A stretch of 64,000 nt of DNA from an uncultured Chloroflexota bacterium. Lineage in GTDB: Bacteria; Chloroflexota; UBA11872. Shown piece by piece: positions 7,891-26,587 of this stretch; within the stretch, counting starts at the first letter, position 1, and the number at the start of each line of letters is the position of its first letter. The stretch lies in contig CAZFVB010000002.1 in assembly GCA_964522375.1 (NCBI GenBank), positions 3,752-67,751 of the forward strand, written 5' to 3'. Position numbers and translations under genes: made by a program. The notes beneath the pieces are model-generated. The model was not told the origin of the DNA. It ran no database searches and saw only the letters and a program-made list of their open reading frames with translations.

Positions 7891-9098
7891 GAGACCAATT
7901 GATCCGGGCTTAAGAAAATCACGATACTTTCGGCCCGCTTTGTCCAAGTCATATCTTCAACTTCCGCGCGCGCAACTTGCGCCAACGCACGGGCGAGCAC
8001 ATGATCATTTAACAGGCGGGTTACAGCGTCAGCGAGCGCTTCAGGCTCGTCGGGAGTAACAAGAAGCGCATTTTCTCCGTCCCGCAAGATCTCGCGAAGC
8101 GAAGGTAAATTGCTAGCCACGATCGGCCGTTGGGCCGCCATATACTCAAAAAGTTTGAGCGGCGAAGTGTAACTGCGAGCAATTTCTTCACGGGCACTGA
8201 ATGGAATCACCGCAACGTCAGCCGCAAGAAGATATTTGCGAGCGAGCGAAGGTGAGAGATGGCCTATTACATGAACATTGTTATGGCCAGACGCAGCCGA
8301 ACGAATGCGCTCAAGATCTGGTGATACACCACCAACGATATACCAGTGCACATTCTGATCCATGTGATCGACAGCCTGCACCAAGACATCCACCCCCTTC
8401 CAAGGATATAGATGTCCGATATAGCAGGCTATAGGCGCCGCTTCAGGCAAGTCCAAATCTTGGCGCGACATCACCTGACCATCTGGGTCAAACGCTGCCA
8501 CATCAACCGCATCGGCAGCTACCAGGACTCGGGAGGGATCAAATCCAGCATCCAAATACCACTGCCGAAGCCCTGCGGTAATGGTCACTACGCCGTCCAT
8601 GCGACGTACAGCCCACCGGTGCAATGCTGACGAAAATTTGGATCGAGGCACCGTGTGAGCCTCAAACGCAAACTTGGCCTCACGCCTCGTAATAAGTCTG
8701 AGCACCGTGAGCGGAAGGAGGTCGCGACTAATCACAATGTCACCTCGCCATCGCTCAGCCATAAATGCAGCAGAAATAGTAAAAGTCCAAAGCTGCAAGA
8801 AGTGAGCCGCCAGTCGTATTGGCGCCACATTTAACAACGGCCAATCGATAGTCACTCGTTTAATCGCGTCAATCGTCGGAAGCCCGACTAATCTGAAACT
8901 TCTGGCCACATTGGCATAGTCGAACGGATCACCGACCTTTCGCATAGCAACCGTGTTCGCTCTCCGGGCATAGGCAAGCGTGACTTGCGCACCGTTACTA
9001 GCAAACGCTGCCGCCATATGCATGATCTGCATAGGATGGGCTCGTTCGCTCGGAATACGTGCATTGGCGATCATCACAATCCGCAAGGGGTGACTCAT
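7887..9098 (-). CDS. Glycosyltransferase family 4
   Basis: GT-B architecture with a C-terminal PFSAREEIARSYTSPLKLFEYMAAQRPIVAS motif (EX7E-like); 403 aa. Confidence 0.8.
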   Translation of the reverse strand: MSHPLRIVMIANARIPSERAHPMQIMHMAAAFASNGAQVTLAYARRANTVAMRKVGDPFDYANVARSFRLVGLPTIDAIKRVTIDWPLLNVAPIRLAAHFLQLWTFTISAAFMAERWRGDIVISRDLLPLTVLRLITRREAKFAFEAHTVPRSKFSSALHRWAVRRMDGVVTITAGLRQWYLDAGFDPSRVLVAADAVDVAAFDPDGQVMSRQDLDLPEAAPIACYIGHLYPWKGVDVLVQAVDHMDQNVHWYIVGGVSPDLERIRSAASGHNNVHVIGHLSPSLARKYLLAADVAVIPFSAREEIARSYTSPLKLFEYMAAQRPIVASNLPSLREILRDGENALLVTPDEPEALADAVTRLLNDHVLARALAQVARAEVEDMTWTKRAESIVIFLSPDQLVS

Positions 9099-9101
9099 GA
9101 A

Positions 9102-10907
9102 TTAAATCCGGTAGACAAGAGCAATCCTTGCTCCGGATTCGATATGACCAAAGCGAATGCGACTCGATCGACGCGTCCATCGCACGTGGGTCTTAACTTC
9201 CAGTCCTTTGGCCTTGACCGGTAATCGATACTGCACATCATGAAGCCGGCCTGAAGCCTCGAGTTCATCGCGAACCAGCACGGATGTCTCCTCAACACGA
9301 TAAGTCCGACGAATCCCAACATTCGAATGGACAGTTCCATCCATATCGGCAATCCCAGACATAATGACCAAGGCATCACCATCAACATGTACAGTGCTTT
9401 TCGTCGCGTGACTTGACGAACTACGACGATGCGATCGAAACATCGGCAGGGAAAACTTTCGCCAAATCAATCCTGCGGCATGCTGCCATCGACCCGCCCG
9501 CGCATGCGATCTAGCAATGTGTAACACGAACCGATTTTCACGACCGCGACTACGAACTGAACTAGCGACGATTGATGGCCCGGACCGTCGGACTGACCAA
9601 GACGCTTCTGGCTCATCGGGTTCCGACTCAAACTGGATCATGTTTCGCCAATCGTCATCCTTGTTACCAACATAAACCAAGCCCCCACCGCCAACACGAC
9701 CGCCCACAAGACGGTCAGCGGAGCGCTTGTCAGTTCGAACAATTGCACACGCCGTTCGTGAACCTATCCGGGCGACACCAGCATCAGCTGCATACATCGG
9801 GCCAGAGGGATCAATATCCGTGGCATCCACATTTCGTTCATCAAGCTGCGCAGCAGCATACGCACGAGCAAGCCAAGCCAAATCAGCCGTATGAAAAACC
9901 CGACAGACAAAACTAGCGGACCCCGAAGTAGCTTCCAGGAATCCTGATGGCGTTACAGCTGCAATGCTCTGAGCCGCCACTCGACAGGCCAATGGAATCA
10001 TCGACTTTCTTCCATCGGTTGCAAGCACATAAGCATCGTACGCAGACGAACCAGCTTCAGTATCGGCGTCCCAAAACCACCGTTTCCCTTCCAAGCCCAG
10101 CGGCTTAAGACCGTCGGGGCGAAGCACCGTACACAAAAAATCAGCACCAGTTCGCAAAGCATCCTCAAATTCAGCCTCGGCACCAAAAAGACGAAGCGCA
10201 TAACGAGAAAAGCCTACGCATCGACTGTGGTAATACACGGTTAGATCGGAAACACCCACACCTTCACCAAGGGTTTTAGCGTCTTGGACATACCGAAACG
10301 AGCCATCGGGTCGCATCTCGGCAAAGGAACGATCAATCGCCTGTTTGACCGGTAGGCGCCACGCGGTCTCATCCAAAGCCACGGATGCCGCTGCTAAACC
10401 CATCGCTCCCCACAAGCGCTGATTAGTAACCGGCTTCGCGACAACGTTATGGATCAAGTAAGTCTCACAACACAGTCGAACCGATTCCTCGATGGCCTGA
10501 CGTTCTAAGAGATCCAGGGTGTCTCCTGGATGCATTAGCAACGTAGCCAACGCATCGACACATTCACCCGCATCAATAATGTTCGTGGAGTTGTTTCGAT
10601 AGTCATGGAGGCCTGGGAAAAAGACCCAAGCACCATCCGCCGCAGAATCTGGGGCTAGACGAGACACTATCCCTCGAGCCGTCTGACGAGCCCTCGACAG
10701 GTAGCGATCCTCACCCGTGTGCCGATGAAGAGCACAGTCGATAACGATGGATCGGGAAGATTTACCCGTGTGATCAACGCCGTGCTCCGGACAGCGCATA
10801 TATCCGTAGTCATTACGCAGCCGATTGAATAGGTCCGAAGCGGCCGATAACGCCTCCGCCGCATCCGGTGTTAGTGCCGAAACAGCGGAAGCACCGATCG
10901 GCATCAC
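9102..10907 (-). CDS. 601-aa soluble protein of unknown function; possibly a heparinase II/III-like or alginate-lyase-like (alpha/alpha-toroid plus beta-sandwich) polysaccharide-modifying enzyme
   Basis: No TM segments or signal peptide are apparent. Size and context (between an acetyltransferase and GT4s) match heparinase II/III-family proteins common in EPS loci. No catalytic motif could be verified by eye. Confidence 0.35.
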   Translation of the reverse strand: MMPIGASAVSALTPDAAEALSAASDLFNRLRNDYGYMRCPEHGVDHTGKSSRSIVIDCALHRHTGEDRYLSRARQTARGIVSRLAPDSAADGAWVFFPGLHDYRNNSTNIIDAGECVDALATLLMHPGDTLDLLERQAIEESVRLCCETYLIHNVVAKPVTNQRLWGAMGLAAASVALDETAWRLPVKQAIDRSFAEMRPDGSFRYVQDAKTLGEGVGVSDLTVYYHSRCVGFSRYALRLFGAEAEFEDALRTGADFLCTVLRPDGLKPLGLEGKRWFWDADTEAGSSAYDAYVLATDGRKSMIPLACRVAAQSIAAVTPSGFLEATSGSASFVCRVFHTADLAWLARAYAAAQLDERNVDATDIDPSGPMYAADAGVARIGSRTACAIVRTDKRSADRLVGGRVGGGGLVYVGNKDDDWRNMIQFESEPDEPEASWSVRRSGPSIVASSVRSRGRENRFVLHIARSHARAGRWQHAAGLIWRKFSLPMFRSHRRSSSSHATKSTVHVDGDALVIMSGIADMDGTVHSNVGIRRTYRVEETSVLVRDELEASGRLHDVQYRLPVKAKGLEVKTHVRWTRRSSRIRFGHIESGARIALVYRI

Positions 10908-11513
10908 CTAAATGCGCTCGCCAATCACGCGTGCTGGAACTCCACCTACGATGCTGTAAGGAGCGATATCTTCCGTCACCACTGCCCGGACTGCTACGAC
11001 AGCTCCGTCACCAATCGTTACGCCAGGAAGCACAACGACCTCGCTGTAGATCATCACGTCGTCACCAATGACGACCGGACTCTCCTCGATAGGCGCCTGC
11101 AAGATCGGGACATCACGACGACTGGTGTCATGCCGGTGTGAATAAATCGTGGATTCGCGTCCAATATGCGAGTTTTTACCAATCGTAATTCCACCAGTAC
11201 AGTCCAGCCGGACTCCAGATAACACCTCTGTTCCAGAGCCTATTTCAAGTGCCACATCAGGCTGATAATCCGACTCGGCGCCAACCCGCACGTCACGTTT
11301 GATATGCACCCCAGCACCCATAGTGATTTTCAGACCACTGGGGTAGTAAAAACGACTATCGATCTTGACATCGGACCCAACCTCAACACCAGAAGCACCA
11401 CGAAGGAGCGCCGCCCTGACAATCCAAATTATCTGCTGATAGCGTCGGAACACCCGAAAGTCGGGAAAGTGACCGACGAACCGTGCGAGCTGACGCGCAA
11501 CATCTGGTCTCAT
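10908..11513 (-). CDS. Hexapeptide-repeat (left-handed beta-helix) sugar O-acetyltransferase, WcaF/NeuD-like
   Basis: Repeated [LIV]-G-x-x-x-x hexads: IGKNSHIGRESTIY, VVIGDDVMIYSEVVVLPGVTIGDGAVVAVRAVV; 201 aa. Confidence 0.8.
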   Translation of the reverse strand: MRPDVARQLARFVGHFPDFRVFRRYQQIIWIVRAALLRGASGVEVGSDVKIDSRFYYPSGLKITMGAGVHIKRDVRVGAESDYQPDVALEIGSGTEVLSGVRLDCTGGITIGKNSHIGRESTIYSHRHDTSRRDVPILQAPIEESPVVIGDDVMIYSEVVVLPGVTIGDGAVVAVRAVVTEDIAPYSIVGGVPARVIGERI

Positions 11514-12649
11514 AACTCAGACCGTCTTTCCGCCACCGAAGGAAAATCAGGACGGTCTCCACGTTTGACCGAATCAAAAACTTCCACCAATTTTCCGACC
11601 AGACCGTCAGCCCCATGCCCTTCAACTACTGACGTACGTAAACGACTTATAGTCGCATCGAGAAGATTTGGATGTAATCCGAGAACTCCATCGATCCCAC
11701 GAGCTAGTTCAGCAGGCGTATCACCCACCAAGAAGTTGTGCGCAAGTTTGCCCATAACGTTCCGATACGAGCTGTTGTTGGTTATCAACGGAATCCCACA
11801 CGCCATCGCCTCGAGCCCAGTCTTATCCAATGAGGGTTGCATCCGCCAGTTCACAAAAACGCTAAGCGACCGGTAAAACTGAGCCATGCTATCTCCTCGG
11901 ACTGGCCCGACAAACTCGACTGCCTGGTCAACCGCAAGTTCAGTGGCCAAAAGCCGTAAATCCTTAACATATTGGTGATCGGCTGAGTAAAAAGGTTCCC
12001 CTGCAATCCGTAACGAGGCATTCGGGTAACCGTTATTCCGCAACGTCGCGAGAGCCCTGATGCCAGTGTCGAATCCCTTTAGAGGGGTAAGTCGACCAGC
12101 CATGCCAAGCACCGCTCCGGTCCCAGACAATGGCAGACCGGACGGAGCAAACCGTTGAGTGTCGATCCCATGCCCAAGCAAAAATGCCCGATTGCTTGGG
12201 ATCGGATAACTCTCCACGGAAGCCGTCACTGCCGCATTTACAATCCTATTGGCCCATATAAGCGCCGATGACTTGCCATGGCTCGTGTACCAAAGCACCA
12301 AGGGCGCCCTGGCAAGACGAGCAACTGGACCAATCGCCACTGCATAAGCAGGCACCATATGAGCGAACACTGCATTTACCCGGCCACTTGCCAACAAGGA
12401 CACGCACGTCGCGCCAAATTGGTAAACCCGGCGCCCACGAGATCGACTGGATTCACAGCCCATACTATGGACGTACACATTAGGAGGCAGCTCCGTATCT
12501 ACGACTCGGCCGGCAAGCACATGAACAGAGTCCACTCGCTTGGCTAACTCACCCGTCCAGTTGTGCGCGACGGCCAAATTTACACTTGAGGAATTGAGTT
12601 CTTGCGTGACAAACAGGATCCGAAGACCCTGGCCGGGTCCATTAGTCAT
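11510..12649 (-). CDS. Glycosyltransferase family 4
   Basis: LRILFVTQE start; C-terminal GLEAMACGIPLI motif; 4-nt overlap with the downstream gene. Confidence 0.8.
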   Translation of the reverse strand: MTNGPGQGLRILFVTQELNSSSVNLAVAHNWTGELAKRVDSVHVLAGRVVDTELPPNVYVHSMGCESSRSRGRRVYQFGATCVSLLASGRVNAVFAHMVPAYAVAIGPVARLARAPLVLWYTSHGKSSALIWANRIVNAAVTASVESYPIPSNRAFLLGHGIDTQRFAPSGLPLSGTGAVLGMAGRLTPLKGFDTGIRALATLRNNGYPNASLRIAGEPFYSADHQYVKDLRLLATELAVDQAVEFVGPVRGDSMAQFYRSLSVFVNWRMQPSLDKTGLEAMACGIPLITNNSSYRNVMGKLAHNFLVGDTPAELARGIDGVLGLHPNLLDATISRLRTSVVEGHGADGLVGKLVEVFDSVKRGDRPDFPSVAERRSEL

Positions 12650-13769
12650 CTACTGACTTCAGTGCCAGTTGCCGATATGCAGCTGCATAGGCGTCCAAAA
12701 CTACCGACTTTTCAAAATGCACTGTCGATGCAGCCGCTGCAACACCGATAGCGCTCAGAACATCTGAGTTCCCCAGCACCTCAAGCACGAGCGATGCTCC
12801 GGCGTCCTGGTCCCATGGTAGTAACCATCCATTCTCGCCATGTTCAATAGTTTCAGGCATGACACCGACCGGCGTCGCAAACACAGCTGTCCCACACGAC
12901 ATCGCTTCAAGACATACACGGGGCCCACCTTCGCTCAAAGAGGGGCAAACCAGAGCATTCAGACCTCTATAGATCTCAGCCAGTTGTTGGGTGGTTTCGA
13001 GCCAGCCCATGAACGTGACTTTATTGAGGACTCCGACGCGTGCCAACTCGACTTGAAACGATCCACGTTCAGGTCCTTCACCCACGACGACAAACCTAGC
13101 CGAGGGCCATCTGGCTGCCACAGATTCAAACACTCGAGCCACATACCGTAAATTTTTGTTGGCCACCAACCGGCCCACAAACCCCAAGGCGTATTCCTTG
13201 CTCGTGCTACCAGGATGAAAAACTGATCGATCGATATATGCCGACGGGAGTACAAGTATTCGACTCGTGGGAATGCCCCAACGACGCAATAGGGTTGGAA
13301 CCTCCGAGCGATTTACAACACGAACCGCAACCGCAGCTCGCGCTACACGGGTCAAATACACGCGATAAATGATTTTCTCGATAGCTTCCCACCACTGGGC
13401 TCGTCGAGGATGCCCGGGCACATGGTGGATTTCGCTCACGTACGGCGTTCCATACTTCCGCGACAGGAACGAAGCAGCCCGTCCGTTTGAAAATATGCCG
13501 TAATCATGACTCACGATCAGATCGTGGCCATGCGCGTCCATAAGTTCCGCTCCGCGTTTACGTAACCAAGACGTCTGTCGCAACCGAGACACTGGCGACG
13601 ATTCAACAGAAACACCAATGTGGGGATTCGTCCTCGAGTTACTACCGACATTTGGAGTTAGGACATCTATTCGGTCAAATTCAGTCGCCAACCCTTCTAG
13701 GGTTGTGGCAAAAGGACCCGACCGACCGATCACAACATCACGATCACCGCTGAGCATAAGCAACTTCAC
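12642..13769 (-). CDS. Glycosyltransferase family 4
   Basis: MKLLMLSGD start; EGGPRVCLEAMSCGTAVFAT motif; overlaps its neighbours by 4-8 nt. Confidence 0.8.
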   Translation of the reverse strand: MKLLMLSGDRDVVIGRSGPFATTLEGLATEFDRIDVLTPNVGSNSRTNPHIGVSVESSPVSRLRQTSWLRKRGAELMDAHGHDLIVSHDYGIFSNGRAASFLSRKYGTPYVSEIHHVPGHPRRAQWWEAIEKIIYRVYLTRVARAAVAVRVVNRSEVPTLLRRWGIPTSRILVLPSAYIDRSVFHPGSTSKEYALGFVGRLVANKNLRYVARVFESVAARWPSARFVVVGEGPERGSFQVELARVGVLNKVTFMGWLETTQQLAEIYRGLNALVCPSLSEGGPRVCLEAMSCGTAVFATPVGVMPETIEHGENGWLLPWDQDAGASLVLEVLGNSDVLSAIGVAAAASTVHFEKSVVLDAYAAAYRQLALKSVDD

Positions 13770-14929
13770 GCTTTTGGATGCCCGTTACATCGAGTCACAT
13801 TGAGCAAGATTTGCATGGTCTCATCGACCAATCGATCCCATGCAAAATGCGAGAGGTTCGTAGAAGCTATCCCGCTTAACCGCTCGCCAAGCGCCGGGTC
13901 ATTCAACACCCGATTTACCGCGGCAACAAATGATTCCGAGTCCCCAAAGGGCACTAGAAGAGCATTTTCTTCATTCGTGAGAATCTCTCGGTTTCCACCA
14001 ATATCCGTGGTCACGATCGGTGTCCCTATAGTCCGAGTCTCGATAAGCGTGTGAGACAGACCCTCATACGCCGTATTCAGCACGAACACATCAGCCGCTC
14101 GAAGATACATAGGCACGTCTTCATGAGCTACACGACCTACAAAATGAACCCGGTCTATAACACCCAGATCTCGTGCGCACCGTTCAAGAAAATTTTGCTC
14201 GGGTCCGTCACCAACAACCACCAGAGTCGCACTCTTCGCAAATGCTGGAACCATGTCAATGAGATCATCCACGCGTTTCCATGCATAAAGACGTGCAACC
14301 GTACAGACCACCGGTCCATTCAAACCCAACTCTCGTTTAGCCTCGTCGCGCGTGTGCTCAACCAAAGGGGTTTCGGTTAACGCATTCTGAACAACTCGAA
14401 TCTTTGATTCACTGATGCCCCAGCCTTTTACGAGCTGCCCTACATATGAACTCGGAACGATAACTGTACTCGCCAATCGACTATAGGCTCGCTGAACAGC
14501 CCGAAACGCCCGCACTCTAAGCGGATGACGAGCCTCCTGAAAGGCTTCAATTCCATCACGTGTAAGTTCACGACGAATCGAAGACTCCCAAGCCCAATCA
14601 CCAACGATCTTAAGCACACGAGGACGTCCAGCCAACAATGCAGCGAGGGTGGAGGGAAGCTCAATCCCGTTGATATACACCACATCGGACCTACGCGCTG
14701 CATGCCACGTGTACCAAAACACTAGCAAGTAGCGCCAGATCACTGGTGTGGCCCACGACACCCGCTTTATGGGAAAAGGGGTTTGAACAAGTCCCTCTGG
14801 ATCATCAGGACACACTACGGCCCGGACATCGTGCCCACGGTCGTAAAGAGTTTGAGCCAGGTGATAAATGTGCGTAGCAGGTCCACCAACCGTCGGAGGA
14901 AATATGTTCGAAACAAATGTGACACGCAT
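13766..14929 (-). CDS. Glycosyltransferase family 4
   Basis: MRVTFVSNIFPPTVGGPATHIYHLAQTL (canonical GT4 N-terminus) plus EGLSHTLIETRTIGTPIV. Confidence 0.85.
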   Translation of the reverse strand: MRVTFVSNIFPPTVGGPATHIYHLAQTLYDRGHDVRAVVCPDDPEGLVQTPFPIKRVSWATPVIWRYLLVFWYTWHAARRSDVVYINGIELPSTLAALLAGRPRVLKIVGDWAWESSIRRELTRDGIEAFQEARHPLRVRAFRAVQRAYSRLASTVIVPSSYVGQLVKGWGISESKIRVVQNALTETPLVEHTRDEAKRELGLNGPVVCTVARLYAWKRVDDLIDMVPAFAKSATLVVVGDGPEQNFLERCARDLGVIDRVHFVGRVAHEDVPMYLRAADVFVLNTAYEGLSHTLIETRTIGTPIVTTDIGGNREILTNEENALLVPFGDSESFVAAVNRVLNDPALGERLSGIASTNLSHFAWDRLVDETMQILLNVTRCNGHPKA

Positions 14930-15027
14930 TAGCTGGACGCTAGCATCGAGCCCGCAGCGTCACAACGTTACCAGCTCATACTCAAGAAACTTCGATATCC
15001 AGCTCAGCAAACACAGCCCATTGCAGA

Positions 15028-16131
15028 CTACTCGGTCGAAGATGCCTTAGAAACATCATGAGAGCCATTTTGAAGGACTGGTAACGAACTCTCCCCCGTA
15101 ACCACCCCACGAGCACTAGAAAACAGACTCCATGCGGCGCCATCATCCTGCCAAACAGCGTCGCAGCCACGACACAACTTGTAGTCCTCTAATTCCCCGT
15201 CCACATGCGCCTGTCGGATCGCCTGATATTCCTTACTGTTCCATATGTCCCGAATCGATTGGGTCGACAAGTCCCCCATAATCTGATCCTCAGCGAAGTC
15301 AGCGCAGCATGACGGAACCTTGCCATCCCAATATATGGCCATCGACTTCCACAACCAGTTGCACGGAAAGTAATTAGGCCCATGCGGACGTGCCGTGTAG
15401 AAATCCGAAGTCTCCATCTGTCCGGCCCACCCATGAGCCCAAAACGTATCCCACTCGTCTACAGGGAGCCCGCTGAACCGATCAAGAAAGTGTTGGGGAA
15501 TAGTAGGTAGCGCACCCTTGGCATAATCCGAATTCCAGAGTTGAATCACCTGCATCACCATGTAGGGACGCTTACCAGATCTAGTCTTCATCGCCCGTAA
15601 TAATTGCAACACCCGCTCCAGGGTGTGATCAAACTTGGCTCCCTTACGCATTTCCTCATATTCACCAGGCTCACCAGAATCAAAACTGACAGTGAGCTTG
15701 CTCGGGCGAGCATCCAATAATTGATCGATTTTCTCATCACGTAGTAGTGTGGCGTTTGTGTTTATGTGCGCAGCGATGCCGGCTTCCTCACTCACCCGAA
15801 TCATCTCGTAGATGTCCTTGTGCATCATCGATTCACCGCGAAAGAACAAATTAGCCTCCGTTGTGAAATCCTTGGCCTCATTAATGATCTTTCGAAAAAG
15901 GTCCATTTCCATAAAACCGTTGTGCTCATTCGCACCCACACTTTGGGGACACATCGGACAACGAAGATTGCAAAAGCTCGTGGGCTCAATGTGAATCTTA
16001 AGAGGCCCATAAGGAACTTCCGTGGACCCTTTCATCCAGTGATAAACAAATCGACCAAGAGCCGGTCGCAAGATTGCACGGTGACGCCGATACTTGAGGA
16101 GCAAGTCTTTCGCTTGGCCAACCCTGTTCAC
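15028..16131 (-). CDS. Radical SAM enzyme with C-terminal SPASM/twitch auxiliary Fe-S domain
   Basis: CNLRCPMC (CX3CX2C) at residues ~53-60. C-terminal Cys cluster CNWLW...SCCADF...CRGC matches SPASM. 367 aa. Its start overlaps the stop of the upstream Trm112-like ORF by 4 nt. Confidence 0.8.
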   Translation of the reverse strand: MNRVGQAKDLLLKYRRHRAILRPALGRFVYHWMKGSTEVPYGPLKIHIEPTSFCNLRCPMCPQSVGANEHNGFMEMDLFRKIINEAKDFTTEANLFFRGESMMHKDIYEMIRVSEEAGIAAHINTNATLLRDEKIDQLLDARPSKLTVSFDSGEPGEYEEMRKGAKFDHTLERVLQLLRAMKTRSGKRPYMVMQVIQLWNSDYAKGALPTIPQHFLDRFSGLPVDEWDTFWAHGWAGQMETSDFYTARPHGPNYFPCNWLWKSMAIYWDGKVPSCCADFAEDQIMGDLSTQSIRDIWNSKEYQAIRQAHVDGELEDYKLCRGCDAVWQDDGAAWSLFSSARGVVTGESSLPVLQNGSHDVSKASSTE

Positions 16132-16361
16132 GAAGTGCTATCGACCGTCTCGCCGTTCGGCGGAATTGCCTCATCCCACAGCATGTTAGGGATTCCATCC
16201 TCGACTTTGTAACCGTAGCCGCAAACCGTGCATTCCAGCATCTTTCCACTTATGCGAAGCACACCGTCATCACGACTATGCTCATTGTTTACACAACGAA
16301 GCATCGCCAAGAAATCATCAGGGATGATTGACGAAGCTTTGGAACTGTCACGATCGACCAT
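16128..16361 (-). CDS. Trm112-like / UPF0434 (YcaR-like) small zinc-ribbon-like protein
   Basis: 77 aa; LRCVNNEHSRDDGVLRISGKMLECTVCGYGYKVEDGIPNMLWDEA matches the Trm112p-like (DUF343) pattern; translationally coupled to the rSAM gene. Confidence 0.6.
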   Translation of the reverse strand: MVDRDSSKASSIIPDDFLAMLRCVNNEHSRDDGVLRISGKMLECTVCGYGYKVEDGIPNMLWDEAIPPNGETVDSTS

Positions 16362-16396
16362 AGATCAATATTACGTCAAATTGCGTCTCTCGGAAG

Positions 16397-18643
16397 CTAG
16401 AGCATGAGATGAAGAGTGTCAAAGCCAATAAGCAGAGACGCAAAGCCCACGACGGATCCAACTTGCATTACTCGCGCCATCCGTGAACGGAGAAACATTC
16501 TCTTGGTTAAGCCAATCCAGGCCCCAAGCGCAAGGAATTGCAGGCCTAACAGCATGACGGCTACCCAAACCAACACTACCGGATAAGCGAGAAAACTTTC
16601 GGTTAATCCCATCGACCAAAAATCAAGGCCAAGACCATTTTCTGGACGTTGAGGTATAGCATCCACACCAAATCGGGACCACGGCGTACGGCTTAAAGCA
16701 TCGGCCAAGAAATCGGTCCGGTCAGGTGCAAGAAGATTCACAGCGTCAGCTCGCAACAACCACGCATGGCCAAGTAGTGGTGAAAACTGATAGGAGTAGA
16801 GAACAGCTGCATAATCGCCCTCAGGTTGGATGGATGACCACGGCTGGTAGTCCGAACCGCCATAAATCGCACCACTCAGAGGCACTGCGCCAGCCACTTG
16901 CTGTTGGAATACGTCTAGATAGCCCGTGAAATCCTTTGACACACCCATAAGTTGCGGTACGACACTGATTGCTACCGTTAGAGCAAGCACAACTTTTAAC
17001 AACCGCCTACGCGAACAACGAAACATGTGATCGATGAGTGGTGCGCCCAAAACAATAAGGAAAGGTAGCGTGGGGACTAGATAGCGCGGTCCCCAAGCAT
17101 TGCCGCCGTACCACACCTGCTTCCGGCTATATAGCAGCACATAAACGATTGGAATAGCGACAAAGAAGAATGATCGCCAGCCATGACGACGGATAAACCA
17201 CGGTATAACAGGAACAGTTAAAAGAAGGATTGGGTTGTACCACAACACACCTTTCCCCCAACTCGTGAGTAATCCCCCCAAACCAAGACCAAGAGGTAGC
17301 TCAAGCCATCCGCGCTGAAGACCACCGATGAGTTCCTGCTCATAGAGCAAGCGAAAATCAAAAAACACCCCGGCGACCAGAAGTACCGTAGGCACAACCA
17401 AAAGGAATGGCGCCAGCAGAATCATCTGCAGCTGCAGTGACGGTCGAAAACCAGCAAACCACCCATTTCCCCGACTTTCTCGGACGAGAATCGCCAACAA
17501 GAAAACTGGGATTGCTATAACAGAAACATATTTGGTTAGTACCGCTGCGAATATGGCTACTCCAGCCAAGAGCACATACCGGCGACGATTGGTGGAATCG
17601 AAGACAAGAATCAGCCACGCCGCAGGCAGCAGTAATGTCGTGACTAGAGGCTCAGCAAAATCATATTTGGCGTAAGGCCATGCCATAGTTCCCAAACCGT
17701 AGATCAGGGCCATCACAATCGACACCTGCTCCGAATACCCCAAACGTCTAACTATTCGAAAGACCAAAACCACTGCGAAAGCCGTGATTAGAGCATTGGC
17801 TGCAGGCACCCATAACCGACGAAAAAACTCCTGATTCTGTCGCTCGGACCAGACACGCCCGACTCCAGGCCCATCTATCCATCGACCTCCAGATATCCGA
17901 AGAGCTAGGCCGTCGACGTAAAGGTTTCCGGTCGGCCGTAAATATGTAATCTCAGCGCTCGCGAGCTCCAAAGGCGGATCGAACTCCCATGTCGCCGCGT
18001 AATAGTAGGCCCGAGCATTACCGATATGTCTGGCCACTGGTTTGGGTTGGTCATGTTGAATTACTGCACGAACATCACCACGATCGTATGCCCACTCTGC
18101 TGTCTCAACTCCGACACGAATGGGGTAAGTCGTAACTTGTCCCGAAGATTGAATTAGCGAAACTCGAGCAATTTCAGTGCCCTGAGCAAACTCTGCGCTA
18201 AGCCCACTGTGCGAAACGAGAGTCATTCGATCATAGGTGCCCGGCTTAATTGAAAGATCCAACCCTCCTTTAACTCCGTGACCTCCCGTCCCACCAATTG
18301 GATGAAAATTGACAAGCAACACATCGTGTTCTGCAAGAGGAATACGGTCCCGTTGTGGTGCCGCACGAGCGATAGGTTCGGCAAGGGCCACGAAAGGCAG
18401 CAAGACCGTAGGAAGACCTACGCCCCACCTGGCAAAGTTCTTGTTTTGATCCCGTAGGTACGCATGGCCTGGATCAACCATCACACTCTTGGCCATCTCG
18501 AAGGCAAAAGTCCCGTCAGCGCTATATCCAGCCCCATTACGCCCCATGCCTAGCGTCATTGCATAAATAGAGAATATGAACAAAAAAAGAAGTAGCGCAG
18601 GCCGACAGTTCGCCCGACCGATAAGTGAGCGCATCCCAGTCAT
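16397..18643 (-). CDS. Large polytopic membrane protein, possibly a GT-C-fold / YfhO-like extracytoplasmic glycosyltransferase
   Basis: 748 aa. One N-terminal TM anchor, then a ~270-residue soluble domain, then more than 10 hydrophobic helices and a C-terminal TM. No catalytic motif was confidently recognised. Confidence 0.45.
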   Translation of the reverse strand: MTGMRSLIGRANCRPALLLFLFIFSIYAMTLGMGRNGAGYSADGTFAFEMAKSVMVDPGHAYLRDQNKNFARWGVGLPTVLLPFVALAEPIARAAPQRDRIPLAEHDVLLVNFHPIGGTGGHGVKGGLDLSIKPGTYDRMTLVSHSGLSAEFAQGTEIARVSLIQSSGQVTTYPIRVGVETAEWAYDRGDVRAVIQHDQPKPVARHIGNARAYYYAATWEFDPPLELASAEITYLRPTGNLYVDGLALRISGGRWIDGPGVGRVWSERQNQEFFRRLWVPAANALITAFAVVLVFRIVRRLGYSEQVSIVMALIYGLGTMAWPYAKYDFAEPLVTTLLLPAAWLILVFDSTNRRRYVLLAGVAIFAAVLTKYVSVIAIPVFLLAILVRESRGNGWFAGFRPSLQLQMILLAPFLLVVPTVLLVAGVFFDFRLLYEQELIGGLQRGWLELPLGLGLGGLLTSWGKGVLWYNPILLLTVPVIPWFIRRHGWRSFFFVAIPIVYVLLYSRKQVWYGGNAWGPRYLVPTLPFLIVLGAPLIDHMFRCSRRRLLKVVLALTVAISVVPQLMGVSKDFTGYLDVFQQQVAGAVPLSGAIYGGSDYQPWSSIQPEGDYAAVLYSYQFSPLLGHAWLLRADAVNLLAPDRTDFLADALSRTPWSRFGVDAIPQRPENGLGLDFWSMGLTESFLAYPVVLVWVAVMLLGLQFLALGAWIGLTKRMFLRSRMARVMQVGSVVGFASLLIGFDTLHLML

Positions 18644-18664
18644 CGGATATTCGATACGGCTCGA

Positions 18665-20245
18665 TCAGTTGTCAACGAAGCCCGCCACTAGCTCAAGAAG
18701 ACGCACACGGAACGCTTCAGCGCTGAACTTCCTGCTCGATATACGCGCCCGGGCGGCCATCGAGCTGCACAGCTCCGGATCACGAATTAATTGCCACGTA
18801 CGCTCACGCAGATTCTCTGCCTTAGACCAAACAAAGCCATCATGACTATCGGTCACTAGTTCTGGCAGTCCCCCTTGATCTAACACAACAGGTACCGCCG
18901 AACTCGCCATCGCCTCAACAACTGAAATCCCAAAATGCTCGAATCGGACTGGATTTCGATCCGGTCGCTCCCCATACCCCGCAGCATGCCAGTAAATCTG
19001 AGCGTCACCGTACATCTCGCGAAGCTTATCGAAAGGCACATCTACCGCAAATTCGATGGGATAACCCTCAGCCCGCCGCCTCAACTCTTCTGTGTACGCA
19101 ACGTCAATCTCTCGACCACTTTGATGTCCGGCAAGACAAAGTGTCCAACCATCTAGGCCTTCGCGACACATACGCTTGAACTGATCAATCATTACTCCAT
19201 GCTTTTTTTCATGCGTCCCTCGATAAAACCTTCCCACCGTCAGAATTGTGTGTGTCTTGGCTCGAGTCAGCGCCCAACTGATGTCAACGGGTGGATACAG
19301 GATCGGCCCGCTTATCCCCCAGTACATTTCCATCCAATGACGACTGTATTTCGAAATCGGACTAATCACGTCATACGTATCAAGATGATCAAGAGAATAA
19401 AACGTAGGCAGGCCTTCAAGCCGGAGCCCAAGCTCACGAAACGCCTTTCGGAAAACGATTTCATATAAATAATGGCGAAAATGTCGAACCCGTACGTCGG
19501 TGACAGCCAGGCCTACCTCCCGATTGTCAGCTCCCTCAAACCGATCGATGGGATTAAACGTTGGCGATTCAAGAACTAACTCGACGGTGTTCCCGTGCAT
19601 ACAACTCGGATCGATATCGATCTGCCAAGTTTCAAAACAGCCAGGATTAGGAGGGAAGGTGCGTTCAGCAATAACCTCACCATCAACGAGACATCGGACC
19701 GGAAGTTCCACATCCTCTCGAAAGTTTCCTCCAACGATCTCAATGGAGGCAGTTCGAGTAGCCGAAGGGACTCGAACCCTGATATTCGCTTGCCTAGTGG
19801 CGTAGCGAAACCACCCGGAACCAAGTTCCTGAACGTCGTAAAACCCATCCAACCATTCGGGCAACAGGAGTTCACGCGTAAGGAATCGACCGACAGCCTG
19901 CCGCATCCTTGCCCCTCGACTTCGATCGATTGGGGAAGGGAATAGAACCAGCATCATGCTGTGAGCCGCTTCTGAAGGCTGGTTCGTCATAAAAGAGGAA
20001 TTGACAAATAGATCAAACTCGCGCGTAAACGCCGCAAACCGATTCGGTGGCAGTGCAGGAATGACTCGCACCGTCACGTTACTCAGATCAATATTTAAGG
20101 CATCGGAAAGTTCTTCGCAGGAAATAGGTCGATGAGTCACCAGTTCAGTTTCGAACCGCTCTGAGAGAACCTGCGCGGCCATAGCAGAATGTCTTTCCCC
20201 TCCACCTTTTTGATGGAGCCAACGGTTGTACACCGCCGCTTTCAC
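18665..20245 (-). CDS. GT4-type glycosyltransferase with an extra ~300-aa N-terminal domain of unknown function
   Basis: C-terminal FEHFGISVVEAMASSAVPVV (E-x7-E) and a GT-B C-lobe. The N-terminal half has no recognisable motif. Confidence 0.7.
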   Translation of the reverse strand: MKAAVYNRWLHQKGGGERHSAMAAQVLSERFETELVTHRPISCEELSDALNIDLSNVTVRVIPALPPNRFAAFTREFDLFVNSSFMTNQPSEAAHSMMLVLFPSPIDRSRGARMRQAVGRFLTRELLLPEWLDGFYDVQELGSGWFRYATRQANIRVRVPSATRTASIEIVGGNFREDVELPVRCLVDGEVIAERTFPPNPGCFETWQIDIDPSCMHGNTVELVLESPTFNPIDRFEGADNREVGLAVTDVRVRHFRHYLYEIVFRKAFRELGLRLEGLPTFYSLDHLDTYDVISPISKYSRHWMEMYWGISGPILYPPVDISWALTRAKTHTILTVGRFYRGTHEKKHGVMIDQFKRMCREGLDGWTLCLAGHQSGREIDVAYTEELRRRAEGYPIEFAVDVPFDKLREMYGDAQIYWHAAGYGERPDRNPVRFEHFGISVVEAMASSAVPVVLDQGGLPELVTDSHDGFVWSKAENLRERTWQLIRDPELCSSMAARARISSRKFSAEAFRVRLLELVAGFVDN

Positions 20246-21603
20246 TGCGGCTCCAAAAAAGGATTGAGCTCCCGTCCGTCTAACGGAGCATGACGCCCTT
20301 CATTCACTCGTAGTTGGAACGTTCGAGGAGCAGCCGTTACGACTTGCAGCAGAGCCCGTACACGGGATATCGAGAGAGCTATCGACGTCCCGTCCAGCTG
20401 AAAGATTCCGACTCGTGCATCATTCCAAGCGTACTTCGTGGCTGCGGCCATATGACGAAAAGTCCACAGGACCGGGGCATTCTTGGTAAGCATACGAAGT
20501 TTTCCAAACTCAACGTTTCGGGTAAAACCTGGCGACCATTCTTTGCTAAATGCGGCATGTTCATGACGCACAACCGAGGCTGGCTCGTAGCAAAAGATCC
20601 ATCCGCGCCTACGAGCCCGCCATGCAAGATCCGCGTCCTCGTAATACATAAAAATCCCATCGTCTAGATAATCCAGCTCGTCCAACATGTCCCGGCGATA
20701 CAGCACAGCTGCACCTTTTGGAGCAAAAATTTCACGCCGGTCGTCGAACGCCGAACTATCCCAAGCTGACCACGGGACTCCTTGCAGAACACGAGTACCT
20801 CGATCACGCATCGAACCATCAGGTAAAGGCACAATCCCAGCACTCTCGATCGCCGGCCGCGCCATCGTCGAAACAACATCGTCCTTGAACGGAATCTCAT
20901 TTGTTGTCCGCCCTGGATTCAACTCAATGCGTCCAAGCTCACAACTTCCAACAAGAACTTTGACAGGCACCCCGTGACGACCATCCCCCGCAGCCAATTC
21001 CAACTTCATAAGAGTGGAACCTTCAACCACCGGCAGTGAGAAATCCACACAACTCATTGACCAACGAAACGCACGTCCACCACCGTCCTGTTCCACACCA
21101 TACGCGCCATTCGTAACATCGGCCCGACCGACATCTGATCTAAGACCATATATCCGAACCCCAAGTCTTCGAGCATCCGAACCAGAAGGAACAAACTCGG
21201 GAACCTCAAGGCGGATCGGCAACCGGTCGTGAAGGTGAAGAATTTTTGGCGCAACACCTCCGACTGATGAATCTTCAGTTAATCGGTCAACAAGAGGCTT
21301 TAACCAGTCAGGGTCAACAATGGTGTCCGGATTTAATAGGCCAACATATGGCTCAGTAGCCATTCGTAATGCCTGATTGTTGCCTCGAGAGAATCCGACA
21401 TTTTCACCATTCGCAATTACTTCAACCGACGGGAATTCCTGACGTACTCGATCAACAGAATCGTCTGTCGAAGCGTTGTCTACGACTGTTACACGAAGAT
21501 CTGGATATTTGGTTTCGGCAAGACTTTTCAAACACCCTTCAATTCGACCAGCGCCGTTATAGTTCAGAACGACAACACGAACAGGGGGAAGTTTTTGAGT
21601 CAT
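20242..21603 (-). CDS. Glycosyltransferase family 2 (GT-A) with C-terminal extension
   Basis: VRVVVLNYNGAGRIEGCLKSL...VVDNASTDDS (DxD-containing GT2 N-terminus); 453 aa. Confidence 0.85.
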   Translation of the reverse strand: MTQKLPPVRVVVLNYNGAGRIEGCLKSLAETKYPDLRVTVVDNASTDDSVDRVRQEFPSVEVIANGENVGFSRGNNQALRMATEPYVGLLNPDTIVDPDWLKPLVDRLTEDSSVGGVAPKILHLHDRLPIRLEVPEFVPSGSDARRLGVRIYGLRSDVGRADVTNGAYGVEQDGGGRAFRWSMSCVDFSLPVVEGSTLMKLELAAGDGRHGVPVKVLVGSCELGRIELNPGRTTNEIPFKDDVVSTMARPAIESAGIVPLPDGSMRDRGTRVLQGVPWSAWDSSAFDDRREIFAPKGAAVLYRRDMLDELDYLDDGIFMYYEDADLAWRARRRGWIFCYEPASVVRHEHAAFSKEWSPGFTRNVEFGKLRMLTKNAPVLWTFRHMAAATKYAWNDARVGIFQLDGTSIALSISRVRALLQVVTAAPRTFQLRVNEGRHAPLDGRELNPFLEPQ

Positions 21604-23306
21604 TCCACCCGAATAGAACGCACGGCAAGCCCCAGCGGCCGAGTGTCAGAATCAAGACCAATTTCGGCTGGGACGAGCGGATCTTCGACTTCTATTACAA
21701 GCTCATGCGTCTCAGGACTTATAACAGGGTCAAGTGGAATAACGATGTCTTCAAAATCCATCCCGTGTACAGGAACTGTGGCGATATGACGACCGTTTAC
21801 GGTCACCGACGCCCGCGTGGTTCCTCGTCCATGCAACGGACGACACGCGGATAGCACCAATGCCCCTTGGCCAACGTCCTGTCTAACGTAGGCAACAGCG
21901 CGTGGCGCCGTCCAACGAATGTGTGGAGGCCAGTCTTCAGCCGGAAACCAGCCTTCACCGAGCCATTCATCATCCCGAGAACCCATAATCAACTCTTCAG
22001 GTGGCAGAGTCCAAAAAGGACCAGCAGCCTCGGTAATCATGTCGGGCTGTACTATTGGCTCGCCGGCGAGCTGAAGTTCGTCTTCGACAGCGGCCGTCGA
22101 TACCCGCCATCTTGCAGGAATCACCGTCACACCACGTAATCCAACAGCTGCTTTGCCCACGAAAAAAGTCATAGCATTTGGCCAAATGTGAAATGGGCGC
22201 ATCCTGTCGGCCGATGGCCACGCCCCAATCGAAACCATATAGGTTCCAGGGCCAAGCGGGAGTGGGCCAAGTTCACACTCCACTCGAGTTCTACCGGGTT
22301 GGAGATCTGTCGGACCAATGGTTGTCGCTGTCGAAGTTTCGTGAATCAGCAGCCCATCGCTTCGTCGAACAGCAAAGCCAACAACAACGTCCTCGAAATA
22401 ACCGCTGGAATCCAACTCGAGTTCAAGCCTGGAAATATTTCCCGGCAAATAAGCGTAGCGTTCAGAACCCGTGTCCACATCACGAGCAAGCGCCGCTCGA
22501 ATCTGGACTTCACCCGTACCGAGTTCAGTTAATTCATTTCTTGCAACCTGACTCGCGACATGGCCAGAACCGCGCATATGCGCGAGATAATCTTGAATGA
22601 CCTCACGTGGATTCCCCTCAGCACGGACCTTGCCAGCATCAACCCACACGACACGGTCACAAAATCGTCGGACTTGAATTGGATCGTGTGAAACAAACAC
22701 GATTGTTTTTCCGCGCTGCTTGATCTCAGCAAGAGCGTCGTAACACTTAGCGGTGAACCGCGCATCGCCAACAGCAAGAACTTCGTCAATTAAGAGAATG
22801 TCTGGATCCAAGCTGATGGCAATTGCGAATCCCAATCGCATGAACATTCCCGACGAATAGTGGCGAACAGGTGTGTCAATAAATCGCTCAAGTTCAGCAA
22901 ACTCAACAATGTCCTTATAGCGCCGTCGCATTTCGGCCCGCCCAATCCCAAGAAACGAGCCATTAAGGAAGATATTCTCCCGCCCTGTCAGGTCGGGATG
23001 CATCCCAGCACCTAGCTCAAGAAGACCAAAAACCTTTCCATCCAACCTAATTTTCCCTGAGGTCGGGGAAATAGTGCCGGCCAACAGCTTTAGGATTGTG
23101 GTCTTTCCGGACCCGTTCGGCCCAATAATCCCAACCGTTTCGCCTTCTTTCACCGCTAAGTCCACCCGATCGAGGGCCCAAAACTCCTCGTGCTCAATCT
23201 GGCGCCGACCAAGTAGCGCTAACGCCATCCCCTGCCATGTACGAGACGATTCATGCCGAATAGAAAATCTCTTACGTACTTCTTCTAAAACGATTACGTT
23301 CGACAC
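21600..23306 (-). CDS. Wzt/TagH-type polysaccharide-export ABC transporter ATP-binding protein with a C-terminal ~320-aa carbohydrate-binding-like domain
   Basis: Walker A GPNGSGKTT, signature YSSGMFMRLGFA, Walker B LLIDEVLAVGD, H-loop FVSHD; the long C-terminal extension follows. Confidence 0.85.
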   Translation of the reverse strand: MSNVIVLEEVRKRFSIRHESSRTWQGMALALLGRRQIEHEEFWALDRVDLAVKEGETVGIIGPNGSGKTTILKLLAGTISPTSGKIRLDGKVFGLLELGAGMHPDLTGRENIFLNGSFLGIGRAEMRRRYKDIVEFAELERFIDTPVRHYSSGMFMRLGFAIAISLDPDILLIDEVLAVGDARFTAKCYDALAEIKQRGKTIVFVSHDPIQVRRFCDRVVWVDAGKVRAEGNPREVIQDYLAHMRGSGHVASQVARNELTELGTGEVQIRAALARDVDTGSERYAYLPGNISRLELELDSSGYFEDVVVGFAVRRSDGLLIHETSTATTIGPTDLQPGRTRVECELGPLPLGPGTYMVSIGAWPSADRMRPFHIWPNAMTFFVGKAAVGLRGVTVIPARWRVSTAAVEDELQLAGEPIVQPDMITEAAGPFWTLPPEELIMGSRDDEWLGEGWFPAEDWPPHIRWTAPRAVAYVRQDVGQGALVLSACRPLHGRGTTRASVTVNGRHIATVPVHGMDFEDIVIPLDPVISPETHELVIEVEDPLVPAEIGLDSDTRPLGLAVRSIRVE

Positions 23307-24149: not shown

Positions 24150-24282
24150 GTATAGCCCCAGCTAGGGACCCAGAGATATTAGCGCAGCGAACAGGAAATC
24201 CGACGTATTGACCTCGCGTGTTACGCTAAATTGCATTACGGTCCCGATGAGAGTCGGGAGCCCCTTGGAGCTCCGTTCGCGC

Positions 24283-26587
<2,305 letters not shown>

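Follow-up and report, generated by a model that had tools for sequence, protein, structure and literature searches.

Why would the gene for a radical S-adenosylmethionine (SAM) enzyme be tied, start codon to stop codon, to the gene for a very small zinc-knuckle protein, and what would such a pair do in an operon for glycan synthesis? These questions are raised by a stretch of 64,000 nucleotides (the window, taken at its full length) from an uncultured Chloroflexota bacterium (GenBank assembly GCA_964522375.1, contig CAZFVB010000002.1). On the minus strand of the window, a Trm112/UPF0434-like gene for a zinc-knuckle protein of 77 amino acids (16128..16361) is followed by a gene for a radical SAM enzyme of 367 amino acids (15028..16131), which starts with GTG and is assigned to the BtrN-like twitch subclass. 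An earlier reading of the DNA without database searches (the original prediction) had placed an open reading frame (ORF) of each length at these positions, and both are present there. The answer developed here is that the pair would act as a two-subunit radical SAM enzyme modifying a sugar for a Chloroflexota envelope glycan exported by Wzm/Wzt, a proposal to which we give about an even chance. The parts are of known kinds (a twitch radical SAM enzyme, a Trm112-like protein and a Wzm/Wzt glycan operon), and their combination is new. The original prediction held that the pairing had not been described. No paper linking Trm112-type proteins to a radical SAM enzyme was found in the literature searched, and searches combining SPASM with polysaccharide biosynthesis or glycosyltransferase returned nothing relevant. 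An uncharacterised radical SAM gene has reportedly been seen beside a glycosyltransferase on a Brachyspira plasmid (PMC4267127).

A small gene coupled to a radical SAM gene

The junction of the two genes was read from the window sequence. The small gene ends in ...GAT AGC ACT TCG TGA and the radical SAM gene starts GTG AAC AGG, the two sharing the four nucleotides GTGA at 16128..16131 on the minus strand. The original prediction had the length of this overlap right and its letters, given as ATGA, wrong. The arrangement suggests translational coupling of the small gene to the radical SAM gene. Is the small ORF a gene at all? Compared with ten relatives, its nonsynonymous divergence (dN) is 0.22-0.33 and its synonymous divergence (dS) is saturated, with dN/dS at about 0.10-0.15 where it is computable; the ORF is also predicted by independent gene callers. 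Because dN/dS against these relatives is at most about 0.15, the ORF is, as judged from its codons, a real gene under purifying selection.

The pairing was followed in a scan of one genome per species that gave 80 loci with homologues of the radical SAM enzyme; ORFs were called in these loci and then searched with a Trm112-like hidden Markov model and with the window proteins. Homologues of at least 48% identity are all labelled Chloroflexota, bar one contig labelled Sphingomonadaceae. Forty-eight close Chloroflexota loci were counted, a few of them being the same genome twice, and a Trm112-like gene adjoins the radical SAM gene in 43. It lies upstream with a four-nucleotide overlap in 36 loci (ATGA in 20, GTGA in 16), upstream across a gap in three, and immediately downstream, in swapped order, in four (L030-L033). 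When the search was started from two Trm112-like query proteins, an overlapping radical SAM gene was found downstream in nine places out of nine, with both genes called independently. The pairing is conserved well beyond chance. Co-occurrence had been suggested as a check with the original prediction, and lack of conservation of the small ORF as grounds for giving it up; the two genes do co-occur, and the small ORF is conserved, coupled and under purifying selection.

The swapped pairs are instructive in another way. In L030-L033 and L086, all Chloroflexota chromosomes, the radical SAM gene comes first and is followed by a Trm112-like gene of 83 amino acids bearing an insertion of about 25 amino acids. 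These pairs are surrounded by genes for ATP synthase, MurA, MreB, RuvABC and an Rce1-like protease. Because they lie among housekeeping genes, the pair can be said to stay joined when all of its surroundings differ. Genes for a Gfo/Idh/MocA oxidoreductase and a nucleoside diphosphate (NDP)-sugar epimerase are found a few kilobases downstream, on the opposite strand.

Outside this group the association ends. Distant homologues of the radical SAM enzyme (33-39% identity; Aminicenantes, Acidobacteriota, Omnitrophota and other phyla) are not flanked by a Trm112-like gene, except at locus L079. A search of 157 homologues and 150 representatives for a Trm112-radical SAM fusion protein found none. 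Longer homologues have C-terminal tails of low complexity, and the homologue P0091 is a read-through of the radical SAM enzyme into a downstream GT4 glycosyltransferase. L079 itself, from a Parcubacteria metagenome-assembled genome (MAG), encodes at 7671-9977 a fusion of 768 amino acids that joins a Trm112-like zinc knuckle to class I methyltransferase, B12-binding and radical SAM domains. This fusion ends in a four-nucleotide overlap onto a radical SAM/SPASM homologue of the window enzyme.

Domains and relatives of the two proteins

The 367-amino-acid protein carries both marks of the radical SAM superfamily, a CX3CX2C motif and an above-threshold Pfam score. Radical_SAM (PF04055) covers residues 48-181 with 63.4 bits against a cut-off of 29.5. 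The motif, CNLRCPMC (C54, C58 and C61; residues 54-61), had been recognised in the original prediction; it is translated from 15949..15972 on the minus strand (read from 15972 to 15949) and would bind the radical-SAM [4Fe-4S] cluster. The enzyme has 157 retrieved homologues, and cysteine conservation was judged in an alignment of 37 homologues with 28-76% identity. In it C54, C58, C61, C257, C275 and C320 are invariant and C323 is nearly invariant. The last four belong to a putative auxiliary-cluster domain of the twitch type (C257-x17-C275 ... C320-x2-C323; 15163..15363, minus strand), delimited by translation and conservation.

How many auxiliary clusters does this domain hold? Pfam SPASM matches residues 257-324 with 61.9 bits (cut-off 21.5). 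The full SPASM pattern, CX9-15GX4C ... CX2CX5CX3C ... C with two auxiliary clusters, is not found in the segment, which reads C-x12-G-x4-CC ... CRGC, lacks the CX5CX3C part and conserves C257-x12-G-x4-C275 and C320-x2-C323 alone. Because the C-terminal domain conserves just C257, C275, C320 and C323, one twitch-type auxiliary cluster is predicted. The spacing of C257 is that expected for the fourth ligand, and NCBIfam N_Twi_rSAM, which matches residues 257-324, agrees with a truncated SPASM holding a single four-cysteine cluster. The domain fits a BtrN-type twitch with one auxiliary cluster and four cysteine ligands. The original prediction had named a SPASM/twitch cluster, of which the twitch-type cysteine domain is retained and the full SPASM is dropped. 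Ahead of the core lies a helical extension of about 40 amino acids (16012..16131, minus strand) specific to the Chloroflexota clade, with helices at residues 4-12, 14-17 and 23-34 in an AlphaFold2 (AF2) model; the alignments of distant homologues begin at query residues 14-43. The extension is possibly a docking or membrane-interface element.

Profile searches against TIGRFAM SPASM subfamilies, proposed with the original prediction, did not name the reaction: no curated family claims the enzyme. None of the NCBIfam curated equivalogs (anSME, PqqE, NirJ, AhbD, the tungsten-cofactor maturase, sactipeptide maturases and others) is reached. All 52 NCBIfam matches lie far under their cut-offs and mostly span core residues 45-196. 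The best is TIGR04317, a tungsten-cofactor maturase model (104.9 bits against 380, radical SAM core only), and rSAM_BlsE scores 38 bits, again far under the family cut-off.

Whether compared by sequence or by fold, the nearest solved structure is BtrN, the 2-deoxy-scyllo-inosamine dehydrogenase of the butirosin pathway (PDB 4M7T/4M7S), whose substrate is a sugar-like polyol. In a sequence search of the PDB, BtrN is the top match (E 1.7e-12) and BlsE the second. The alignment to BtrN spans both the radical SAM core and the C-terminal domain, pairing C54/C58/C61 with BtrN residues 16/20/23 and C275/C320/C323 with residues 187/232/235. The AF2 model, with a predicted local distance difference test score (pLDDT) of 89.4, was compared with the PDB by Foldseek; BtrN (4m7t) was again first (E 4e-14, target-normalised template modelling score, TMt, 0.75), with SuiB, BlsE, DesII and anSME behind. 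In BtrN the ligands of the radical-SAM cluster are C16, C20 and C23 (PMC9012708), and the auxiliary cluster, which has four cysteine ligands, has been proposed as the electron acceptor in a two-electron alcohol oxidation (PMC9012708; PMC10337720). In both enzymes a twitch domain comes after the CX3CX2C motif, and both appear to hold a single four-cysteine auxiliary cluster. The two also differ. The window enzyme is about 100 amino acids longer, with its N-terminal helical extension of 40 amino acids, an insert whose motif GLPVDEWD..WAHGWAG is very conserved, and a C-terminal helix; its first cluster cysteine is C54, whereas that of BtrN is residue 16; and BtrN has no Trm112-like partner. With identity of about 20%, and aminoglycoside or 2-deoxystreptamine genes absent from the window operon, the enzyme does not qualify as a BtrN orthologue.

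Other radical SAM enzymes acting on sugars or nucleotide sugars, namely BlsE (cytosylglucuronate decarboxylase), DesII and SpeY, also match significantly by sequence or fold; the genes around them are those of antibiotic pathways and not of operons for envelope glycans, and their scores are far under family cut-offs. Taken together, sequence and model support a sugar-acting enzyme of the BtrN-like kind rather than a peptide maturase. Among the options offered in the original prediction, the BtrN-like one fares best, BtrN being the top match by both routes. The radical-mediated glycan modification that it proposed is retained as a sugar-acting reaction of this kind, in keeping with sequence, fold, glycan loci and glycosyltransferase fusions, and its suggestion of C-methylation is dropped, there being no B12 domain and no extra conserved cysteine pair. 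A radical SAM methylase was rejected, since the window protein lacks a B12-binding domain as well as features of the HemN or RlmN kind. Epimerisation by a cysteine hydrogen donor, as in NeoN or PoyD, is likewise unlikely, with zero conserved cysteines beyond the seven cluster ligands.

Does the small protein belong with Trm112? By itself it falls under the threshold for Pfam Trm112p. Its sole Pfam match at E <= 0.1 is Rubredoxin (E 0.024), NCBIfam Trm112_arch gives it 26.7 bits against a cut-off of 77, and single-sequence searches of Pfam and the PDB returned noise-level matches only (rubredoxin, Pol gamma B). Since the window protein alone is sub-threshold, its assignment rests on orthologues. 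It has 44 homologues, 43 at 58-96% identity and one near-identical longer sequence, and the family was judged on its profile for a zinc-knuckle fold with [C/D]PX[C/D]...CX2C and a (D/E)GIPxML strand. Pfam PF03966 is matched by 15 of the 24 aligned members. A profile-to-PDB sequence search, which took the place of a fold search because of the low quality of the small protein's AF2 model, matched the UPF0434/Trm112-like structures 2kpi (E 6e-11), 2jny, 2jr6, 2hf1, 2js4 and 2pk7 (2e-7), and then eukaryotic Trm112. Distant orthologues that adjoin radical SAM homologues have a canonical CPxC...CxxC and reach PF03966. As its family profile indicates, the 77-amino-acid protein is a divergent bacterial Trm112/UPF0434 (PF03966, COG2835) zinc-knuckle protein, and the earlier label of a Trm112/YcaR-like, zinc-ribbon-type protein was apt.

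The metal site of the small protein is less constant than one of its strands. The first zinc knuckle is C23-x4-H28 in place of CPxC, and the second is C44-x2-C47. The window subfamily has a five-residue insertion in the first knuckle, and C23, H28, D31, D32, C44 and C47 are invariant within it; from their identity, these residues could make a Cys3His or Cys3Asp metal site. Across the wider clade of small proteins linked to radical SAM genes the metal ligands vary, with L002 keeping only two cysteines, while the Y..DGIPxML..EA strand (DGIPNML in the window protein) is invariant. An invariant strand beside variable metal ligands suggests that the small protein has a structural or binding role. 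In eukaryotic Trm112, the C-terminal β4 strand contacts the methyltransferase (PMC5372719).

Glycan setting and competing explanations

The pair sits in a single long co-directional run of about 19 glycan genes, all on the minus strand, from 24149 down to 550. The run is read as an operon because its genes are co-directional with short or negative gaps; a promoter and terminator scan of 13500-24500 performed no better than shuffles. It opens with Wzm (23307-24149; Pfam ABC2_membrane 49.7 bits) and a Wzt with a Wzt_C domain (21600-23306; ABC_tran 84.9 bits, Wzt_C 43.1 bits), followed by a GT2 (20242-21603) and a GT1 of 526 amino acids (18665-20245), both assigned by Pfam. A permease, a Wzt_C ATPase and GT2, GT1 and GT4 enzymes in one operon make up a glycan pathway dependent on an ATP-binding cassette (ABC) transporter. 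As had been noted in the original prediction, a GT-C-like membrane protein lies upstream of the pair and GT4 genes lie downstream. The former, PMT/PMT_2-like and 748 amino acids long, is the direct upstream neighbour (16397..18643; Pfam PMT 27 bits; PMT_2 26 bits, just under the 26.1-bit cut-off; NCBIfam LA_3751/LA_3752 well under cut-off). A GT4 gene directly follows the radical SAM gene (13766..14929), and two more come after it (12642-13769 and 11510-12649), all by Pfam. A methyltransferase gene was not found among those of the window operon, and neither a polyprenyl-phosphate sugar synthase nor a MATE flippase was identified beside the pair.

This setting is largely conserved. The block from Wzm to the radical SAM gene has the same order in L001-L029, and its part from GT2 onwards also in L034-L035. 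The GT-C-like gene is directly upstream of the pair in L001-L029, L034 and L035, and the GT4 downstream of the radical SAM gene is kept in most loci. In some loci a gene for a methyltransferase of 410 amino acids is inserted before the GT-C-like gene; it is absent from the window and its closest relatives, which retain the pair. At least one recognised glycan-pathway neighbour accompanies about 40 of the 48 close loci, and many of the distant ones are likewise glycan loci. When 1.84 billion representatives were scanned in full with HMMER for the radical SAM family, clustering at 50% identity gave 493 clusters at E <= 1e-30, mostly of 320-360 amino acids and 30-40% identity. Homologues in this range from other phyla adjoin genes for GT4, NDP-sugar epimerase/dehydratase, hexapeptide acetyltransferase, DegT, Wzy_C and Wzx. 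In two cases the link is a single ORF: P0191 fuses GT4 with radical SAM domains, and P0209, labelled by NCBI as a family 39 glycosyltransferase from Omnitrophota, fuses PMT_2/GT39 with them. Both lie in polysaccharide loci with DegT, GT2, methyltransferase, Wzy_C, Wzx and Poly_export genes, and they repeat the adjacency of GT-C and radical SAM genes in another phylum. As its sequences and gene neighbours indicate, the wider family is an uncharacterised, glycan-locus-associated relative of BtrN across many phyla.

Several further features of the run and its relatives were recorded. Past the GT4 genes, still by Pfam and on the minus strand, come a hexapeptide acyltransferase (10908-11513) and a protein of 601 amino acids without family assignment (9102-10907; a sub-threshold alginate-lyase match, E 0.006), which is kept in relatives L006-L022. 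The remainder, down to 550, consists in order of a GT4, a YfhO-like GT-C of 875 amino acids (5320-7947), a GT4, a Wzx-type flippase (2743-4233), a GT4 and another glycosyltransferase. The run holds both a Wzm/Wzt exporter and a Wzx-type flippase, plus two GT-C-like membrane proteins, a combination that suggests two routes of export or decoration within a single run of genes. Past its Wzt_C domain, the window Wzt has an extra C-terminal region (residues ~390-568) ending in D.R.LGLAV..I.V; it is homologous to the C-terminus of the 410-amino-acid methyltransferase (L002:6257-7489; BLASTP E 7e-8), and a similar motif, REVGLAVTDVRVRH, is found in the N-terminal half of the 526-amino-acid GT1. Going by this similarity, the region may be a shared glycan- or membrane-binding module. 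In L001 (11261-14584), the radical SAM gene is followed by three consecutive Gfo/Idh/MocA oxidoreductase genes, with no GT4 genes there; these are candidates for keto-sugar reductases or dehydrogenases. Tandem paralogues of the radical SAM gene occur in L057, L065, L073, L077, L080 and L082 (mostly Aminicenantes MAGs; L073 is Aerophobetes), and other Aminicenantes loci have a single homologue near hexapeptide transferase and GT4 genes. Over the whole window (1-64000), every 2-kb bin has a negative GC skew and all bins but one have a positive AT skew; the skew is weaker over about 24-38 kb, where genes turn to the plus strand, and may follow the coding strand.

What else could the pair be? The small protein might serve a class I methyltransferase, the radical SAM enzyme acting alone and the adjacency reflecting a mere shared operon, an explanation that we regard as unlikely. 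A class I methyltransferase of 410 amino acids is indeed encoded two genes upstream of the small gene in L002, L004, L023-L029, L034 and L035, and in L079 a Trm112-like domain is fused to a methyltransferase/B12-binding/radical SAM protein beside a radical SAM homologue. Bacterial Trm112-methyltransferase fusions are known (PMC5372719), and a mycobacterial UPF0434 protein is the predicted activator of the methyltransferase MtrP (bioRxiv 10.64898/2026.07.15.738315). However, the window, L001 and L006-L022 lack a methyltransferase gene in that stretch of the operon and yet retain the overlapping pair, and none is found among the annotated neighbours of the swapped, housekeeping-associated pairs of L030-L033. 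The small gene overlaps the radical SAM gene by four nucleotides and never adjoins the methyltransferase gene, so gene context does not indicate a Trm112-methyltransferase holoenzyme. Persistence of the pair without a nearby methyltransferase gene, together with the overlap, weakens this explanation. It is quite unlikely, in our view, that the small protein is instead a rubredoxin-like metal centre that feeds electrons to the radical SAM enzyme or handles metal or clusters for it. Radical SAM enzymes do require a one-electron donor, the second knuckle of the small protein (CTVCGYGYKVEDGIP) resembles the first rubredoxin knuckle, and the invariance of C23, H28, C44 and C47 in the window subfamily would allow a Cys3His site. 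Weak Pfam Rubredoxin matches are found in 13 of the 24 members (best E 0.006), and PDB rubredoxins match at E 0.016-0.1. Every one of these matches is below significance, though, and the UPF0434/Trm112-like structures match the family profile far better. In addition, the bacterial orthologues have been described as zinc-coordinating (PMC5372719), and the ligands are lost in part of the clade (two cysteines in L002, an insertion-bearing variant in L030) in which the DGIPxML strand is invariant.

Two further explanations concern the substrate. A small coupled ORF immediately upstream of a radical SAM/SPASM gene is the typical layout of precursor and maturase, and the small protein might be the substrate of a peptide or protein maturase, either as the precursor of a ribosomally synthesised and post-translationally modified peptide (RiPP) with a protein-like leader or in the way that QhpD acts on QhpC. 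SuiB, CteB, SkfB, anSME and EpeE are among the Foldseek matches (E 1e-12 to 1e-8), and the C-terminal tail of the small protein is variable. That tail is nonetheless short, has no conserved modifiable residue and is missing in L030-type proteins, and the small protein belongs to a widespread folded family. Neither a RiPP recognition element (RRE) nor another peptide-binding domain was found in the enzyme by domain search or in the AF2 model, where only three short helices precede residue 45 in an extension of just about 40 amino acids; the pair thus has neither the binding domain nor the recognisable precursor core of RiPP maturation. Since there is no RRE, BtrN (the best match), BlsE and DesII are near, a conserved core is missing from the small protein, and the wider family is linked to glycan loci without an adjacent Trm112-like gene and twice by fusion to a glycosyltransferase, we find a maturase very unlikely indeed. 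Membership of a known peptide-maturase family with a precursor elsewhere would have counted against the original prediction, and no NCBIfam cut-off is reached. Alternatively, the module might act on a membrane lipid, a polyprenol or a cofactor, its position in the glycan operon being secondary. The swapped pairs of L030-L033 and L086 lie outside a glycan operon, the lipid-modifying radical SAM enzyme GDGT-MAS is among the weak PDB matches, and the window has no genes of a nucleotide-sugar pathway alongside the pair. The glycan neighbours of about five-sixths of the close loci and of many distant ones, the glycosyltransferase fusions, and the similarity to BtrN, BlsE and DesII, which indicates polyol or sugar substrates, make a non-glycan substrate decidedly improbable. 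A polyprenyl-phosphate sugar would be compatible with both views.

A two-subunit, sugar-modifying enzyme is the explanation preferred here, and several observations weigh against it. Five of the 48 close loci (L042-L046) have no adjacent Trm112-like gene; two of the five have ample upstream sequence and two have too little to judge, and their labels include Thermoflexus hugenholtzii (L046) and TK10 (L042). The swapped-order pairs are not in glycan operons. The AF2 model of the 77-amino-acid protein, made from a 43-sequence alignment, is poor (pLDDT 56, predicted template modelling score 0.34). All characterised Trm112 clients are Rossmann-fold methyltransferases, not radical SAM enzymes with a partial TIM barrel (PMC5372719; bioRxiv 10.64898/2026.07.15.738315). 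The reaction type is an extrapolation, because identity to BtrN is only about 20% and the NCBIfam equivalogs are unreached. The window operon offers no obvious reductase or aminotransferase that could act as partner on a keto-sugar, and P0191 and P0209, each a singleton cluster, could be read-through artefacts.

Proposed mechanism and comparison with known systems

How might the pair work? We infer the complex, the part played by its small subunit, its substrate and its type of reaction as follows. C54, C58 and C61 would hold the SAM-cleaving [4Fe-4S] cluster, and C257, C275, C320 and C323 one fully cysteine-ligated auxiliary [4Fe-4S] cluster. The Trm112-like protein would be made in step with the radical SAM enzyme through the GTGA overlap and most likely binds it as a stoichiometric structural or activating subunit, as Trm112 does with SAM-dependent methyltransferases. 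The holoenzyme would be situated in the cytoplasm or at the inner membrane face, within the pathway of the Wzm/Wzt-exported envelope glycan. There, a 5'-deoxyadenosyl radical would take a hydrogen from a carbon of a sugar that may be nucleotide-linked or polyprenyl-phosphate-linked, and is possibly the donor of the adjacent GT-C-like protein. A polyprenyl-phosphate sugar donor is a possible substrate because the GT-C-like protein is the most constant third neighbour and its kind is fused to the radical SAM domain in P0209. As in BtrN, the substrate radical would be oxidised via the auxiliary cluster to give a keto-sugar; the modification may end there, or an epimerisation or amination may be completed in a second half-reaction. 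A bolder form of the proposal, offered tentatively and with chances clearly short of even, is that a bacterial Trm112/UPF0434 protein serves as an obligate subunit of a radical SAM enzyme, which would be the first client of Trm112 other than a methyltransferase, and that the holoenzyme installs a radical-derived keto or epimerised sugar in an as yet uncharacterised envelope glycan of Chloroflexota, possibly through changes to the polyprenyl-phosphate sugar donor of the neighbouring GT-C-like transferase.

The function of bacterial UPF0434/YcaR-type proteins was described as unknown in 2017 (PMC5372719). A 2026 preprint has since given the first predicted bacterial client, the methyltransferase MtrP, for the mycobacterial UPF0434 protein ML1347/Rv1684 in the context of mycolic-acid export (bioRxiv 10.64898/2026.07.15.738315). 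The module described here would add a second candidate client, and an unexpected one. Should the interaction prove real, Trm112 would no longer be an activator of methyltransferases only but a partner of SAM-utilising enzymes in general, and an accessory-subunit requirement would be added to the enzymology of twitch radical SAM proteins. Such a requirement matters, as many orphan radical SAM enzymes are insoluble or show no activity if they are expressed on their own. The tight coupling, small size and easy co-expression of the pair make the proposal directly testable. Beyond the pair, the wider radical SAM family is probably a marker of sugar chemistry yet to be described in the envelopes of little-studied bacteria.

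Which known systems does the module resemble? In mycobacteria, DprE1 and DprE2 remodel a polyprenyl-phosphate sugar donor through a keto intermediate. In the three-component GT-C systems of Citrobacter youngae O1/O2, auxiliary epimerases diversify lipid-linked donors in ABC-transporter-dependent glycans (PMC11127046). A GT-C enzyme, an ABC-exported glycan and donor remodelling via a keto intermediate would, by analogy, recur in the system proposed here. The C. youngae and DprE1/DprE2 enzymes are flavin- or NAD-dependent and not radical SAM proteins, and the likeness is one of analogy, not homology. The Trm112 holoenzymes of eukaryotes and archaea (Trm9, Trm11, Mtq2, Bud23 and METTL5) have a small partner of the same zinc-knuckle family as the 77-amino-acid protein. 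There, the SAM-using enzyme owes its stability or activity to Trm112 as a small obligate subunit (PMC5372719), and the same role may be proposed for the window protein. In contrast to those holoenzymes, the presumed client here is a radical SAM partial TIM barrel, and the first knuckle is C-x4-H rather than CPxC. Among bacterial proteins, the UPF0434/YcaR structures 2KPI, 2JNY, 2JR6, 2HF1, 2JS4 and 2PK7 are matched by the window family profile over nearly the whole domain. Bacterial UPF0434/YcaR genes occur in the neighbourhoods of LpxK and KdsB, and 2HF1 is itself deposited under the LpxK name. The bacterial UPF0434 proteins and the small protein of the window thus share a common theme, that of envelope biogenesis.

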